Shown here: in pieces, positions 1 through 39,235 of the stretch
Layout of the letters: every line of letters starts with the position of its first letter
How positions within the stretch are numbered: position 1 is the first letter of the stretch
Origin: Escherichia phage 64795_ec1
Reading direction: 5' to 3' (one strand)
Length of the DNA: 39,235 nucleotides
Sequence record: NC_031114.1
Made by a program: the position numbers and the translations under genes
The notes under the pieces: generated by a model
Seen by the model: the letters and a program-made list of their open reading frames with translations, nothing else
The model's database searches: none
What the model was told of the DNA's origin: nothing

Positions 1-66
1 ACAAAAGCCTATTCCTAAAGACGCCTTGTTGTCACCTATAAAGAGATAATCTTCATCCATCGTCTT

Positions 67-89
67 TAATACAACTCACTATAGGGAGA
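67..89 (+). promoter_or_regulatory. T7-RNAP promoter phiOL (TAATACAACTCACTATAGGGAGA)
   Basis: 23-bp match to T7 class promoter consensus, +1 G at 84. Confidence 0.8.
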
Positions 90-5952: not shown

Positions 5953-6369
5953 ATGAACGACATAGAACGATTCAACGCAAAGACTGAACCATGCGGAGAA
6001 TGTATTCGTTGGACTGGTCGAATCCAGCCTAACGGGTACGGTCAGTTACGATTAAACGGTAAAACACAGTATGCACACAGAGCAGCTTACACACTGTTCA
6101 ATGGAGAAATACCAGAAGGATACGTGGTTATGCACTCCTGCGATAACAGATGGTGTGTAAACCCAAGGCACCTAACTTTAGGAACACAATCTGATAACCT
6201 CATTGACATGACCAGAAAAGGTAGGCACAGTAAGACCGTAATACCAAACGATCACATAGAGGGAATCAGGAATGATACCCGATCTTCCTACGTAATAGCT
6301 AGGGAGTGGGGAGTGAATCCATCAACTATCCAAAAGATTAAATCTGGAAAGAATAGGAGATTTGTATGA
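5953..6369 (+). CDS. free-standing HNH homing-type endonuclease
   Basis: 138 aa; motif HSCDNRWCVNPRHLTLGTQSDNLIDM (H-x-C-D-N-x-x-C-x-N-P-x-H-L…N) and a helix-turn-helix-like C-terminus (VIAREWGVNPSTIQKIKSGK). Confidence 0.85.
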   Translation: MNDIERFNAKTEPCGECIRWTGRIQPNGYGQLRLNGKTQYAHRAAYTLFNGEIPEGYVVMHSCDNRWCVNPRHLTLGTQSDNLIDMTRKGRHSKTVIPNDHIEGIRNDTRSSYVIAREWGVNPSTIQKIKSGKNRRFV

Positions 6370-29774: not shown

Positions 29775-32700
29775 ATGGATAAGTACGATAAGAACGTACC
29801 AAGTGATTATGATGGTCTGTTCCAAAAGGCGGCTGATGCCAACGGGGTCTCGTATGACCTTTTACGTAAAGTCGCTTGGACGGAATCACGCTTTGTACCT
29901 ACAGCAAAATCTAAGACTGGACCATTAGGCATGATGCAGTTCACCAAGGCAACCGCTAAGGCACTTGGTCTGCGAGTTACCGATGGTCCAGATGATGACC
30001 GACTAAACCCTGAGTTGGCTATCAATGCTGCCGCCAAGCACCTTGCAGGTCTGGTAGGGAAGTTTGATGGCGATGAACTCAAAGCTGCCCTTGCATACAA
30101 CCAAGGCGAGGGACGCTTGGGTAATCCTCAACTTGAGGCGTACTCTAAGGGAGACTTCGCGTCCATCTCTGAGGAAGGACGGAACTACATGCGTAACCTT
30201 CTGGATGTTGCTAAGTCACCTATGGCTGGACAGTTAGAAACTTTTGGAGGTATCACCCCAAAGGGTAAAGGCATTCCGGCTGACGTTGGACTAGCTGGAA
30301 TAGACCATAGTCAGAAAGTAACACAGGAACTTCCTGAGTCCACAAGTTTTGACGTTAAAGGTATCGAACAGGAGGCTCCGGCGAAACCATTCGCCAAGGA
30401 CTTTTGGGAGACCCACGGAGAAACACTTGATGAGTACAACAGTCGTTCAACCTTCTTCGGATTCAAAAATGCTGCCGAAGCTGAACTCTCCAACTCAGTC
30501 GCTGGGATGGCTTTCCGTGCTGGTCGCCTCGATAATGGTTTTGATGTGTTTAAAGACACCATTACGCCGACTCGCTGGAACTCTCACATCTGGACTCCAG
30601 AAGAGTTAGAGAAGATTCGAACTGAGGTTAAGAACCCTGCGTATATCAACGTGGTAACTGGTGGTTCTCCTGAGAATCTTGACGACCTCATTAAGCTGGC
30701 TAACGAGAACTTTGAGAATGACTCACTCGCTGCCGAAGCTGGCCTCGGTGCTAAACTGAGTGCTGGCATTATTGGCGCTGGTGTGGACCCTCTTAGTTAT
30801 GTTCCCATGGTTGGTGTAACTGGTAAGGGCTTTAAGTTAATCAATAAGGCTCTTGTGGTTGGTGCAGAAAGTGCTGCGCTGAACGTTGCATCCGAAGGTC
30901 TCCGCACATCCGTAGCTGGTGGCGATGCAGATTATGCTGGTGCTGCCTTAGGTGGCTTTGTGTTTGGCGCTGGTATGTCTGCAATCAGTGATGCTGTAGC
31001 TGCTGGTCTGAAACGTAGTAAACCAGAAGCTGAGTTCGACAATGAGTTCATTGGTCCCATGATGCGGATGGAAGCCCGTGAGACAGCGCGTAACGCCAAC
31101 TCTGCGGACCTCTCTCGGATGAACACTGAGAACATGAAGTTTGAAGGTGAATACAAAGGCGTTCCATATGAGGAACTTCCGACCGAAAAGGGTGCTGTGG
31201 TTCTCCATGACGGCTCCATACTTAGTGCGAGCAACCCAATCAACCCCAAGACTCTCAAAGAGTTCTCCGAGGTTGACCCTGAGAAAGCGGCACGAGGAAT
31301 CAAACTAGCAGGGTTCACTGAGATAGGGTTAAAGACCTTAGGCTCAGACGACGCTGATATTCGACGGGTAGCTATTGACCTAGTGCGGTCTCCTACCGGA
31401 ATGCAATCAGGTTCCTCAGGGAAGTATGGTTCAACAGCTTCGGACATTTTCGAGAAACTTCGTGGCACTGACCAGCGTACTTACAACGACTTGTATAAGG
31501 CGATGTCTGACGCGATGAAAGACCCTGAGTTCTCCACTGGCGGCGCTAAGATGTCTCGCGAAGAAGCTCGTTACACTATCGAGCGTCGAGTGTCCTTGGC
31601 TATTGAGAACCCTGAGCTACAGAAGGCTTTAACTCCTAACGAGCGAATCGTAATGGACATCGTTAAGCGACATTATGACACCAAGCGTGAACTTATGGAG
31701 AACCCTGCGGTCTTTGGTAACACGAAGGCTGTGAGTATCTTTCCGGAGAGTAGACACAAGGGAACATATGTTCCACATGTGTACGACAAGTACGCTAAGG
31801 CACTCAAAATTCAACAATATGGTGCTGAGGGCTTACAGGAAGGTATCGCTCGGTCATGGATGTGTAGCTACGATTTGAGGCCTGCGGTAAAGGCCCGTAT
31901 TGACGAAGCACTTAAAGAGATGCACGGTGTAGAGGAAGTCACACATGATATGGTGTATAAGTACGCTATGGATAAAGCATACGGTATCTCTCACTCAGAC
32001 AGGTTCACTAATAGCTCCATCATTGAGGAGAACATTGAGGGTCTTGTTGGTATTGAGAATAACTCATTCCTTGAAGCACGAAACCTCTTTGACTCCGACT
32101 TAGCAATCACCATGCCAGATGGTCAGCAATTCTCTGTGAACGATTTGAGGGACTTTAGTATGTTCCGTATCATGCCAGCGTATGACCGCCGTATCAACGG
32201 TGACATAGCCATCATGGGGTCTACCGGTAAAACCACTAAGGAACTTAAGGATGAGATTTTGGCTCTCAAAGCGAAAGCTGAGGGTGACGGTAAGAAGACT
32301 GGCGAGGTTCATGCTCTAATGGATACCGTTAAGATTCTTACTGGTCGTGCTCGACGCAATCAGGACACTGTGTGGGAAACCTCACTGCGTGCCATTAATG
32401 ACCTAGGGTTCTTCGCCAAGAACGCCTATATGGGTGCTCAGAACCTTACGGAGATTGCTGGGATGATTGCCACGGGTAACGTGCGTGCTCTTGGTCACGG
32501 TATCCCAATTCTACGTGATACACTCTACAAGTCTAAACCAGTTTCCGCTAAGGAACTTAAGGAACTCCATGCGTCTCTGTTCGGGAAGGAGGTGGACCAG
32601 TTGATTAGACCTCAACGTGCTGACATAGTGCAGCGTCTAAGGGAAGCAACTGACACAGGGCCTGTTGTGGCGAACATCGTAGGAACCTTAAAGTATTCCA

Positions 32701-33581
32701 CACAGGAACTAGCTGCTCGCTCTCCATGGACTAAGCTGCTTAATGGAACCACTAACTACCTTCTTGATGCTGCGCGTCAAGGTATGCTTGGGGACGTTAT
32801 TAGTTCTACCCTAACAGGTAAGACTACCCGCTGGGAGAAAGAAGGATTCCTTCGTGGTGCCTCCGTAACTCCTGAGCAGATGGCTGGAATCAAGGCTCTC
32901 ATCAAGGAACATATGGTACGTGGTGAGGACGGGAAGTTTACCGTTAAGGATAAGCACGCGTTCTCTATGGACCCTCGTGCTATGGACTTATGGAGACTGG
33001 CTGACAAGGTAGCTGATGAGGCGATGCTGCGTCCACACAAGGTGTCCTTACAGGATTCCCATGCGTTCGGAGCATTAGGTAAGATGGTCATGCAGTTTAA
33101 GTCTTTCACTATCAAGTCCCTTAACTCTAAGTTCCTGCGAACCTTCTACGATGGGTACAAGAACAACCGAGCGATTGACGCTGCGCTGACTGGTATCATA
33201 TCTATGGGTCTCGCTGGTGGCTACTACGCTATGGCTGCACACGTCAAAGCATATGGAATGCCTAAGGAGAAACGTAAAGAGTACTTGGAGCGAGCACTGG
33301 ACCCAACCATGATTGCCCACGCTTCGTTGTCTCGTAGTTCTCAATTGGGTGCTACTTTGGCTATGGCTGACCTAGTTGGTGGCCTGTTCGGGGTTGAGTC
33401 CTCAAAGATGGCCCGCTCTACGATTCTGCCTAAAGACACCATGAGGGAGCGTGACCCTAATAAGCCTTATACCTCGTGGGAGGTAATGGGTAATATGGGT
33501 TCCAACATTCTTGAACAGATGCCATCGGCTGGATTTGTGGCTAACGTTGGGGCTTCCCTACTTAATCTGCTGGCGTGGTGA
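29775..33581 (+). CDS. 16: internal virion protein D with N-terminal lytic transglycosylase domain (gene 16); reading frame ends early at TGA 33579-33581
   Basis: 1268 aa; …GVSYDLLRKVAWTESRFVPTAKSKTGPLGMMQFTKATAKALGL… (transglycosylase motif). Confidence 0.9.
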   Translation: MDKYDKNVPSDYDGLFQKAADANGVSYDLLRKVAWTESRFVPTAKSKTGPLGMMQFTKATAKALGLRVTDGPDDDRLNPELAINAAAKHLAGLVGKFDGDELKAALAYNQGEGRLGNPQLEAYSKGDFASISEEGRNYMRNLLDVAKSPMAGQLETFGGITPKGKGIPADVGLAGIDHSQKVTQELPESTSFDVKGIEQEAPAKPFAKDFWETHGETLDEYNSRSTFFGFKNAAEAELSNSVAGMAFRAGRLDNGFDVFKDTITPTRWNSHIWTPEELEKIRTEVKNPAYINVVTGGSPENLDDLIKLANENFENDSLAAEAGLGAKLSAGIIGAGVDPLSYVPMVGVTGKGFKLINKALVVGAESAALNVASEGLRTSVAGGDADYAGAALGGFVFGAGMSAISDAVAAGLKRSKPEAEFDNEFIGPMMRMEARETARNANSADLSRMNTENMKFEGEYKGVPYEELPTEKGAVVLHDGSILSASNPINPKTLKEFSEVDPEKAARGIKLAGFTEIGLKTLGSDDADIRRVAIDLVRSPTGMQSGSSGKYGSTASDIFEKLRGTDQRTYNDLYKAMSDAMKDPEFSTGGAKMSREEARYTIERRVSLAIENPELQKALTPNERIVMDIVKRHYDTKRELMENPAVFGNTKAVSIFPESRHKGTYVPHVYDKYAKALKIQQYGAEGLQEGIARSWMCSYDLRPAVKARIDEALKEMHGVEEVTHDMVYKYAMDKAYGISHSDRFTNSSIIEENIEGLVGIENNSFLEARNLFDSDLAITMPDGQQFSVNDLRDFSMFRIMPAYDRRINGDIAIMGSTGKTTKELKDEILALKAKAEGDGKKTGEVHALMDTVKILTGRARRNQDTVWETSLRAINDLGFFAKNAYMGAQNLTEIAGMIATGNVRALGHGIPILRDTLYKSKPVSAKELKELHASLFGKEVDQLIRPQRADIVQRLREATDTGPVVANIVGTLKYSTQELAARSPWTKLLNGTTNYLLDAARQGMLGDVISSTLTGKTTRWEKEGFLRGASVTPEQMAGIKALIKEHMVRGEDGKFTVKDKHAFSMDPRAMDLWRLADKVADEAMLRPHKVSLQDSHAFGALGKMVMQFKSFTIKSLNSKFLRTFYDGYKNNRAIDAALTGIISMGLAGGYYAMAAHVKAYGMPKEKRKEYLERALDPTMIAHASLSRSSQLGATLAMADLVGGLFGVESSKMARSTILPKDTMRERDPNKPYTSWEVMGNMGSNILEQMPSAGFVANVGASLLNLLAW

Positions 33582-33730
33582 ATGCTCCCAACAAAGCCAC
33601 TGAGCAGGACTTCATGACTGGCTTGATGAACTCTACCAAGGAGTTAGTACCTAACGACCCTCTTACTCAACAGCTTGTGTTGAAGATTTATGAGGCGAAT
33701 GGTGTTAACTTGAGGGAACGTCGGAAATAA
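33578..33730 (+). other. 16: displaced 3' segment of gene 16 (last 50 codons in the other frame)
   Basis: VNAPNKATEQDFMTGLMNSTKELVPNDPLTQQLVLKIYEANGVNLRERRK, stop TAA 33728-33730 inside phi17; 1268+50 codons equals the T7 gp16 length as I recall it. Confidence 0.6.
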
Positions 33731-33802: not shown

Positions 33803-34675
33803 ATGGCTAACGTAATTAAAACCGTTTTGACTTACCAGTTAGATGGCTCCACTCGTGATTTTAATATCCCGTTTGAGTATCTAGCCCGTAAGTTCGTAGT
33901 GGTAACTCTTATTGGTGTAGACCGCAAGGTCCTTACGATTAATACAGACTACCGTTTTGCTACTCGCACTACTATCTCACTAACCAAGGCTTGGGGTCCA
34001 GCGGATGGATATACTACAATAGAGCTACGTCGAGTAACCTCCACGACCGACCGCTTGGTTGACTTTACGGATGGCTCAATCCTCCGTGCGTATGACCTTA
34101 ACGTCGCTCAGATTCAAACGATGCACGTAGCGGAAGAGGCCCGTGACTTAACTGCGGATACTATCGGTGTCAATAATGATGGTAACTTGGATGCTCGTGG
34201 TCGTCGAATTGTGAACCTAGCGAACGCTGTAGATGACCGTGACGCTGTTCCGTTTGGTCAACTTAAGGCTATGAACCAGAACTCATGGCAGGCGCGTAAT
34301 GAGGCCTTACAGTTCCGTAATGAGGCTGAGACTTTCAGAAATCAAGCGGAGGGCTTTAAGACCGAGTCTGGCACTAACGCTGCTAATACGAAGCAGTGGC
34401 GTGATGAGACCAAAGGTTTCCGAGACGAAGCTGAGCAGTTTAAGAATACTGCTGGTCAATATTCTACATCCGCTGGGAACTCTGCGACCGCAGCACACCA
34501 ATCTGAGGTAAACGCTGAGAACTCCGCAACAGCCTCCGCTAACTCTGCCCAGTCAGCAGAACAGCAAGCAGACCGCGCTAAGGTGGAAGCAGACAAGTTG
34601 GGTAACTGGAATGCACTTGCAGGGGCAATTGATAGTGTTGACGGGAACAATGTCATGTTTAAAGGCGACATTTAG
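33803..34675 (+). CDS. 17: tail fibre protein (gene 17), proximal part: T7-type tail-anchor and coiled-coil shaft
   Basis: 290 aa MANVIKTVLTYQLDGSTRDFNIPFEYLARKFVVVTLIGVDRKVLTINTDYRF…; stops at TAG 34673-34675. Confidence 0.9.
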   Translation: MANVIKTVLTYQLDGSTRDFNIPFEYLARKFVVVTLIGVDRKVLTINTDYRFATRTTISLTKAWGPADGYTTIELRRVTSTTDRLVDFTDGSILRAYDLNVAQIQTMHVAEEARDLTADTIGVNNDGNLDARGRRIVNLANAVDDRDAVPFGQLKAMNQNSWQARNEALQFRNEAETFRNQAEGFKTESGTNAANTKQWRDETKGFRDEAEQFKNTAGQYSTSAGNSATAAHQSEVNAENSATASANSAQSAEQQADRAKVEADKLGNWNALAGAIDSVDGNNVMFKGDI

Positions 34676-35675
34676 AACACCTGCAAATATCGTAGGTGGT
34701 GGCTTAATCTCCAACGGTTCTGGTCATTTTGAGAAAGGCGTGGCTGTTAAGGGTGAATTAGATGTTGTAGGGGATGTTTCGGCGCATAAGGATGTGTGGG
34801 TAGATGGTGTAGTTGTAGCCAATGGTGGGATACAGCAACATTCAAATCCTAATACCCTTAATGAGGTGTGGAGGGTGTTTATTAAGGGGGTCCCACTCCA
34901 TATTGGAAACCGACAAGGTCTTCATCTTGGTTGGAACGAGACCAGTAATGGCGAGTCGTGTTTTGTTACTAACAAAGGTGCAGGTGGTGGTGGTTTTGTT
35001 TTCCGCACGGTAAACTTTGAGAACACTGCTGAGATTGGTCGCGTTACATTCACTGGTAACGGTGGAGTACGCGCCTTCGATTTACAAGCAATTAATGGTG
35101 CTCGTATTGAGGCTGGGAATAATATAGTTGGTGCGAGCATTTTCTCAGGAATGGGCGCCTGCCAGTTCAATACCGAAGGTAACTTGCTGGGAGGTCTATG
35201 GAACAGAGTTGGAGGTGACCTATACAACTACCTGTGGAACAAGAGTCACTTTGCTAAGCCACCTGCTGGGGTTCAATTGTTTACAGGCCGTGGTGGGGAC
35301 TACCTTGAGGGCCTTGTTGATACTACAGCTGTTGGGTTCCGCTGGTTCAATTCTGACAGAAGGCTTAAAGAAAACATAAAGGTTGTACGTTCCGCTGATG
35401 ATATGCTTAAGATTATCCGCTCATACATCCCGGTTTCCTATAAGTATAAGGACTCTGAGTATGTTGATAAGCGTGGCAGAACGGTAAGCGTTACCGGTAA
35501 GAACTCTCGTGCTGGTTTCATTACTCAGGATTTGATTCGAATCTGGCCAGAGGCGGTGGACGTGCTATCCGATGGTATGCAATCCCCAGACCCTAACCAA
35601 ATCATCGGTGGACTCATGCTTCTTGTCAAGAATCTTGATGAACGCGTACAGGAGTTGGAGAAAAATAACGTTTAA
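34674..35675 (+). CDS. 17: tail fibre (gene 17), distal receptor-binding part with C-terminal S74-like intramolecular chaperone, in the other frame
   Basis: RTPANIVGGGLISNGSGHFEKGVAVKGELDVVGD… then …NSDRRLKENIKVVRSADDMLKIIRSYIPVSYKYKD…IIGGLMLLVKNLDERVQELEKNNV; no independent SD, so a continuation of the proximal ORF is assumed. Confidence 0.75.
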   Translation, partial: RTPANIVGGGLISNGSGHFEKGVAVKGELDVVGDVSAHKDVWVDGVVVANGGIQQHSNPNTLNEVWRVFIKGVPLHIGNRQGLHLGWNETSNGESCFVTNKGAGGGGFVFRTVNFENTAEIGRVTFTGNGGVRAFDLQAINGARIEAGNNIVGASIFSGMGACQFNTEGNLLGGLWNRVGGDLYNYLWNKSHFAKPPAGVQLFTGRGGDYLEGLVDTTAVGFRWFNSDRRLKENIKVVRSADDMLKIIRSYIPVSYKYKDSEYVDKRGRTVSVTGKNSRAGFITQDLIRIWPEAVDVLSDGMQSPDPNQIIGGLMLLVKNLDERVQELEKNNV

Positions 35676-38510: not shown

Positions 38511-38591
38511 TTTATGCATTGAGACTGCATAGGGATGCACTATAGACCACGGATGGTCAGTTCCTTAAGTTACTGAAAAGACATGATAAAT

Positions 38592-38614
38592 TAATACGAC
38601 TCACTATAGGGAGA
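38592..38614 (+). promoter_or_regulatory. T7-RNAP promoter phiOR
   Basis: TAATACGACTCACTATAGGGAGA, +1 at 38609. Confidence 0.88.
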
Positions 38615-38767
38615 GGAGGGACGAAAGGTTACTATATAGATACTGAATGAATACTTATAGAGTGCATAAAGTATGCATAGTAGTGTACCTAAAGTGACCT
38701 CTAAGAATGGTGATTATATTGTATTAATATCACCTTAACTTAAAGACCAACATAAAGGAGGAGACTC

Positions 38768-38917
38768 ATGTTCCGCTTATTGTTGAACCTACTGCGGCAT
38801 AGAGTCACCTACCGCTTTCTTATGGTACTTTGTGCTGCCCTTGGTTACGCAGTTCTTAATGGAGACCTCAGTTCATTGGAGTCTACCGTTTGCTCTTTAC
38901 TTACTTGTGTTGATTAA
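38768..38917 (+). CDS. 19.5: gene 19.5 small protein
   Basis: 49 aa MFRLLLNLLRHRVTYRFLMVLCAALGYAVLNGDLSSLESTVCSLLTCVD after SD AAGGAGG. Confidence 0.75.
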   Translation: MFRLLLNLLRHRVTYRFLMVLCAALGYAVLNGDLSSLESTVCSLLTCVD

Positions 38918-38989
38918 GGTCTTCATAACAGACTGATGGCTCACCGAGGGATTCAGCGGTATGATTGCATCACACCACTTCATCCCTAT

Positions 38990-39156
38990 AGAGTCAAGTC
39001 CTAAAGTATATCCATAAAGAGCCTCTAATGGTCTATCCTAAGGTCTATACCTAAAGATAGGCCATCCTATCAGTGTCACCTAAAGAGAGTCCTAGAGAGG
39101 GCCTAGGGAGTTCCTAGAGGGTCCTTTAAAATATACCATAAAAATCTGAGTGACTA
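38990..39156 (+). repeat. right-end short-repeat region (CCTAAAG-like heptamers) preceding the terminal repeat; concatemer-processing/packaging signals by position
   Basis: recurring CCTAAAG / CCATAAAG / CCTAGAG units spaced along the segment. Confidence 0.45.
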
Positions 39157-39235
39157 TCTCACAGTGTACGGACCCAAAGTTCCCCCCATACGGGGTACCT
39201 AAAGCCCACCTAAAGTCAACCGAAGGTCCTTAGGG
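39157..39235 (+). repeat. beginning of the direct terminal repeat (partial, truncated by the window edge)
   Basis: TCTCACAGTGTACGGACCCAAAGTTCCCCCCATACGGGGTACCTAAAGCCCACCTAAAGTCAACC closely matches the T7 genome-end sequence as recalled. Confidence 0.7.

Follow-up and report, generated by a model that had tools for sequence, protein, structure and literature searches.

In phage T7, unit genomes are joined through the terminal repeat into concatemers that hold one repeat copy per junction. After the RNA polymerase has paused at a junction signal, the DNA is cut by the terminase (gp18/gp19) and the repeat is copied, so that each packaged genome has it at both ends. By our measurement, the repeat is 160 bp long in T7 (nt 1-160 = 39778-39937, NC_001604), 158 bp in Escherichia phage NC-A and 148 bp in phiA1122, and it is annotated as 159 bp in Yanou; in all relatives with determined ends it spans 148-160 bp and starts TCTCACAG, at nt 1 of the T7 genome. 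The motif ATCTGTT, which is the class II pause/termination signal of T7 RNA polymerase at the concatemer junction, where pausing has been linked to packaging, starts at the first position beyond the repeat (T7 nt 161, NC-A 159, phiA1122 149, Yanou 160), and the copy at nt 161 is the sole one on the + strand of the T7 genome. In the relatives, the left heptamer array comes after this pause signal, and T7 also has a leftward promoter, A0, at nt 224. Chung and Hinkle are said to have mapped the packaging signal. The right-hand and left-hand heptamer arrays discussed below are presumably the SRR and SRL of T7 (Dunn and Studier 1983). Our literature searches on the pacB site and on the SRL/SRR heptamer arrays gave irrelevant papers.

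The window (the whole stretch of DNA analysed here, 39,235 nt) matches T7 at 91.5-92.5% nucleotide identity over 92% of its length (megablast, 50,697 phage records). Homologues of the T7 genes from 0.3 to 19.5, including every T7 gene needed for replication and virion assembly, are present in T7 order (tblastn, 53 T7 proteins). The left side shares with T7 the layout of phiOL and the early promoters A1-A3, and the T7-class promoter family has 13 copies in the window. Judged by T7 gene order and high genome-wide nucleotide identity, the features that mark the genus, the window is a Teseptimavirus genome with about 91-92% DNA identity to T7 and a like order of genes. The record itself is very probably incomplete and of draft quality: it represents an ordinary T7-like genome but is cut short at both of the physical ends. 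Homology to relatives upholds what an earlier note on this DNA had proposed, namely that the record is incomplete at both ends and that the window ends inside the right repeat.

A few parts of the genome lie further from T7. The segment 141-600, with the A1-A3 equivalents, has 92-93% matches in T7-group phages of Shigella, Enterobacter, Klebsiella and Yersinia, and T7 is not among its top 40 matches, a pattern that suggests that the left end of the window may be mosaic. The proteins gp1.2 (41%) and gp5.5 (50%) are much further from T7 than their neighbours are. Between genes 1.2 and 1.3, at 5953-6369, there is a 138-aa ORF for an HNH_3 homing endonuclease with 35-41% identity to T7 gp2.8 and gp7.7, and the T7 sites of genes 2.8 and 7.7 hold no gene in the window genome.

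The right end of the window follows the normal T7 arrangement, from phiOR through gene 19.5 and the heptamer array to a repeat boundary at 39157, and stops 79 nt into the repeat. Its features are as follows:

38592..38614, + strand: phiOR-equivalent T7-class promoter TAATACGACTCACTATAGGGAGA, with +1 at 38609; the final phage promoter before the genome end
38768..38917, + strand: gene 19.5 homologue, an ORF of 49 aa with Pfam DUF5465; the last gene of the genome
39000..39119, + strand: right-hand heptamer array, eight same-strand CMTARRG copies
39157..39235, + strand: the right direct terminal repeat, of which the 5' 79 nt are present before the record ends; they correspond to nt 1-90 in relatives, where the repeat spans 148-160 bp
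39215..39235, + strand: inverted repeat inside the terminal repeat (GTCAACC-GAA-GGT...), with a 3' arm that breaks off after 39227

The phiOR equivalent belongs to the promoter family (member at 38587-38614, 100% to the reference copy), and its +1 lies 548 nt ahead of the repeat start (38609 to 39157), versus 549 nt in T7 (39229 to 39778). The gene 19.5 homologue is 84% identical to T7 gp19.5 over aa 13-49 (tblastn). The heptamers of the right array are CCTAAAG (three copies), CATAAAG, CCTAAGG, CCTAGAG (two copies) and CCTAGGG, and the array aligns column for column with those of T7, NC-A, phiA1122, 04922B, AV103, Salmonella phage C2 and a metagenome contig from ENA. Eight + strand matches to CMTARRG in 39000-39119 compare with about 0.05 expected from the whole-window shuffle rate. 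Over the whole window, the motif occurs 67 times versus 33.4 +/- 5.6 in shuffles, and CCTAAAG occurs 15 times versus 4.4 +/- 2.4, with 5 of these 15 copies within the last 236 nt. Chance enrichment of the heptamers was considered and rejected, as 0 of 100 shuffles reached either window-wide count. The right heptamer array is real and conserved.

Directly after this array, downstream of phiOR and gene 19.5, the repeat start TCTCACAGTGTACGGACC begins at 39157, and the window stops 79 nt further on. In semi-global alignments with free end gaps, these final 79 nt map to left-end nt 1-90 of T7 (73/79 identical), NC-A (77/79), phiA1122 (74/79), 04922B (74/79) and the ENA contig (72/79), to nt 1-97 of AV103 (76/79) and to nt 1-102 of Salmonella phage C2 (74/79). 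The T7-type repeat start that had been claimed at 39157, cut after 79 nt, is thereby confirmed. Nowhere else in the window is there another copy of the 79-mer 39157-39235; the same sequence does not stand at both ends, and the window thus has no terminal redundancy. Instead of a full repeat of about 148-160 bp that ends in ...CCCT right before ATCTGTT, the right end holds these 79 nt, and ATCTGTT does not occur on the + strand of the entire window. From the comparison with relatives, we infer that the lack of a second repeat copy would reflect truncation of the record and not a property of the phage.

That the window ends are instead the true physical ends, in a T7 relative with no terminal redundancy or with a different end structure, is barely conceivable. 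The one point in its favour is that no repeat is shared between the two window ends. Against this, a conserved repeat start stands at the homologous site 79 nt from the end, preceded by the heptamer array, and all relatives with determined ends have 148-160-bp repeats that begin in the same way. Moreover, the terminase proteins of the window are 99.7% (gp19) and 97.8% (gp18) identical to those of T7 (tblastn), which makes a different end chemistry very unlikely.

The fragment departs from its relatives mainly toward its 3' side. One extra nucleotide, a C, is inserted at 39191, 8 nt are deleted near 39206-39209, and 3 nt and 1 nt are lost past 39227. The final 8 nt of the fragment (39228-39235, CCTTAGGG) align poorly to every relative, two deletions being needed. 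Four indels are thus required in the last 45 nt (39191-39235), versus essentially no net indel in the preceding 450 nt, which match at 94-97%. In the relatives, the inverted repeat inside the terminal repeat is whole, with 7-bp arms (GTCAACC-TTC/GAA-GGTTGAC, T7 nt 65-81), and it is within the 3' arm of this GTCAACC-NNN-GGTTGAC element that the window departs from all of them. The window sequence around 39215-39235 is therefore probably unreliable. As for the element itself, the arms in Salmonella phage C2 carry a compensatory C-G to T-A change (GTCAACT/AGTTGAC), and the loop is GAA, the complement of TTC, in NC-A, AV103 and the window.

It is worth noting that the sequence shows breaks elsewhere as well. 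Gene 16 (internal virion protein D) is frameshifted in the region 33520-33730, lying in 29775-33581 plus 33566-33727: the match to T7 gp16 keeps one frame for aa 1-1264, as far as 33566, and continues in another for aa 1265-1318, at 33566-33727. Relative to both T7 and NC-A, there is a 1-nt deletion at about 33566 (AATGCTGCTGG to AAT-CTGCTGG), and this frameshift is probably a sequencing error. The tail-fibre gene 17 (33803-35675) is present as two overlapping ORFs:

33803-34675: gene 17 ORF 1, 290 aa, with the Phage_T7_tail N-terminal domain
34611-35675: gene 17 ORF 2, 354 aa, with a Peptidase_S74 intramolecular chaperone

The break in gene 17 falls at the boundary where the sequence diverges from the T7 fibre, and the fibre of the same type in NC-A is encoded by a single ORF of 625 aa. 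Every other T7 gene homologue that was found lies in a single reading frame (tblastn). Frameshifts in two essential virion genes are explained more easily by sequence errors than by biology, and the two in genes 16 and 17, each of one base, indicate that the window sequence is of draft quality. Errors at low-coverage ends are therefore plausible too.

At the left, the window opens with ACAAAAGCCTATTCCTAAAGACGCCTTGTTG, in the last heptamers of the left array, ahead of phiOL:

1..45, + strand: left-hand heptamer array remnant, with ACAAAAG at 1-7, CCTAAAG at 14-20 and CTATAAAG at 36-43
67..89, + strand: phiOL-equivalent promoter, the 23-mer TAATACAACTCACTATAGGGAGA, with +1 at 84 (T7 phiOL +1 at 405)

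The 66 nt that lie 5' of the phiOL equivalent agree with the claim of the earlier note that the window begins about 65 nt upstream of phiOL with no repeat copy. Apart from the T7-promoter match, the first 100 nt have no other copy in the window. The first 70 nt correspond to T7 318-388, NC-A 314-385, AV103 309-377, the ENA contig 300-369, phiA1122 291-360, Salmonella phage C2 279-347 and 04922B 268-337. Of the two same-strand heptamer arrays that flank the repeat in T7-type genomes, the window has the right one, with eight copies, and the last two or three heptamers of the left one (1-45). A separate feature of this region is seen in phiA1122, where about 15 GA dinucleotides follow straight after phiOL (about nt 375-420), which the other aligned relatives lack.

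From these correspondences, about 267-317 nt (about 0.27-0.32 kb) would be absent at the left end, and about 58-70 nt of the right repeat would be absent as well (148-160 minus the 90 nt represented). The earlier note was right that the left end and the rest of the right repeat are missing, and its figure of roughly 0.4 kb for the left end was too high. In all eight aligned relatives, T7_200S included, the repeat goes on beyond the equivalent of the last window position, first as a G/T-rich stretch of variable sequence and then to the conserved end ...TTGAGTGTCTC...CCCT. The repeat is followed by ATCTGTTACAG, except in T7_200S, which carries CTCTGTTACAG. By homology, the gap would hold the left repeat copy, ATCTGTT, A0 (mapped in T7) and nearly the whole left array.

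The 38990-39156 region had also been described as the only packaging-signal region present, which overstates the case, as the window also contains phiOR, half of the repeat (its first) and, at 1-45, what remains of the left array. The heptamers themselves are at most a candidate for the packaging signal; T7_200S, a viable laboratory line of T7, no longer has the left array.

According to the PhageTerm paper, assemblers set the first base of such genomes arbitrarily; they commonly merge the two repeat copies into one. Doubled read depth across the repeat, with peaks of read starts at both of its boundaries, is the mark of such ends described in that paper. Many T7-like records are circular permutations. 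The window could in principle be a complete circular permutation of a collapsed-repeat assembly, with 39235 joined to nt 1, so that ...GGTCCTTAGGG would run directly onto ACAAAAGCCTATTCC... (ACAAAAGCC); a real deletion in the phage would then have removed ATCTGTT and A0, together with the left heptamer array and the 3' half of the repeat. We consider this highly improbable. The final 300 nt of the window were joined to its initial 300 nt and searched against the phage collection, and the joined query was covered whole in one place in 29 listed records that are permuted or otherwise contain the junction. In all 29, the span is 185-400 nt longer than the query, for example by 185 nt in 04922B, 188 in CICC 80001, 198 in Salmonella phage C2, 227 in AV103, 238 in KKE5P, 241 in a permuted T7 record and 326 in two Bas phages, and in none of these 29 relatives are the window ends adjacent. 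The multiple alignment excludes KKE5P and CICC 80001, in which TCTCACAGTGTA has no exact match, although their junction spans were still counted; repeat copy number per record from megablast was dropped because the 28-nt seed misses a short, divergent repeat. The window is thus not a closed circular permutation, because relatives with an unbroken junction carry 185-400 nt extra between the positions of its ends. In addition to the second repeat copy, the window would lack about 180-230 nt of unique junction sequence.

Other features of the join also speak against a deletion. No overlapping k-mer is found between the two window ends, and a join of CCTTAGGG to ACAAAAG would not be a heptamer-to-heptamer recombination, unlike the deletion in T7_200S. 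It would also break the inverted repeat and take away the end of the terminal repeat, both of which are conserved, and the indel-rich last 45 nt resemble a low-quality contig end. On the other side, these elements differ in some deposited genomes. T7_200S (MZ375272), a mutagenised T7 line that propagates without the left heptamer array, has lost about T7 nt 177-322, almost all of that array, by a deletion from heptamer to heptamer. A further 18 nt are deleted within its repeat, and both of the ATCTGTT copies that flank the repeat read CTCTGTT. Yersinia phage Y (JQ957925) has ATCTGTA at 683-689, at the junction signal annotated by its authors, so that ATCTGTT is altered in two deposited genomes. 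Conserved is therefore not the same as strictly required, because T7_200S and phage Y lack or alter these elements, and a real deletion keeps a little of our credence because conservation does not prove necessity. There is, on our estimate, a very slim chance that the window ends are truly adjacent in concatemers and that this is a viable T7 relative that does without ATCTGTT, A0, the left array and the 3' half of its repeat; if so, its genome ends would be defined and duplicated with a repeat of at most about 79 nt and no class II pause.

Sequence collections were also searched for the same strain, as a source of the missing sequence. Exact-pattern scans of IMG/VR, JGI metagenomes and GTDB genomes with strain-specific 32-46-mers, drawn from the left end and from the right array and repeat, gave no match, and neither did an exact-protein look-up with gp0.3. 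The same look-up with gp19.5 returned only the 1,136-nt ENA contig, which is from a different strain and adds one contiguous junction. Over the end region searched, the phage collection (megablast, 50,697 phage records) has no entry above 97% identity to the window. This last result would suit the idea that the phage record is complete and that the truncation comes only from cutting the window out of a somewhat longer record. Such a cut is nevertheless very improbable: the length of 39,235 nt differs from that of a full T7-like genome by no more than about 1%, genome-end sequence lies on both sides, and a whole short record fits better than an arbitrary cut. The same parts are missing either way.

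Among known systems, T7 has the same repeat start in the same place, after phiOR, gene 19.5 and the right array; by contrast, only the equivalent of T7 nt 1-90 is present in the window, and only at its right end, and T7 nt 91-317, with ATCTGTT, A0 and the left heptamer array, have no counterpart. The closest match to the right end is NC-A (MK310182 / NC_048163), at 96.9% over window 38700-39208, which also shares the GAA loop of the inverted repeat and a tail fibre with a C-terminal Peptidase_S74 chaperone domain. NC-A differs in its complete 158-bp repeat at both ends and in its unbroken 625-aa tail-fibre ORF, whereas in the window the repeat is single and partial and the tail-fibre gene is split. 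One-sided or permuted repeats are common among deposited T7-like records. Like the window, Yersinia phage Y has a one-sided repeat, annotated as 'TR present only at 3' end', and 04922B, KKE5P, Salmonella phage C2 and AV103 are permuted records in which the repeat is single or displaced through assembly or layout. These five differ from the window in having kept one complete repeat with the sequence that follows it, whereas the window has lost about 180-230 nt of junction.

Overall, we infer that the record, through assembly, trimming or ends of low quality, and not the phage would account for what is missing. The full genome would be about 39.56-39.63 kb long and would have terminal repeats of about 148-160 bp on both sides.

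The feature is already known, being the T7 genome end in a truncated record, and it holds no new biology; its relevance is for curation and practical use only, and no biological question arises from it. The record falls short of the genome by about 0.33-0.39 kb, and one whole repeat copy, part of the other and the pause signal are missing from it. As it stands, it is unfit for defining the termini or for comparing repeat and packaging elements, and it is unfit for rebuilding the phage from synthetic or assembled DNA because T7-type genomes need both repeats. For T7 relatives more widely, the position of ATCTGTT at the first nucleotide after the repeat, in the four genomes with defined ends, offers a simple rule by which the right boundary of the repeat may be predicted.
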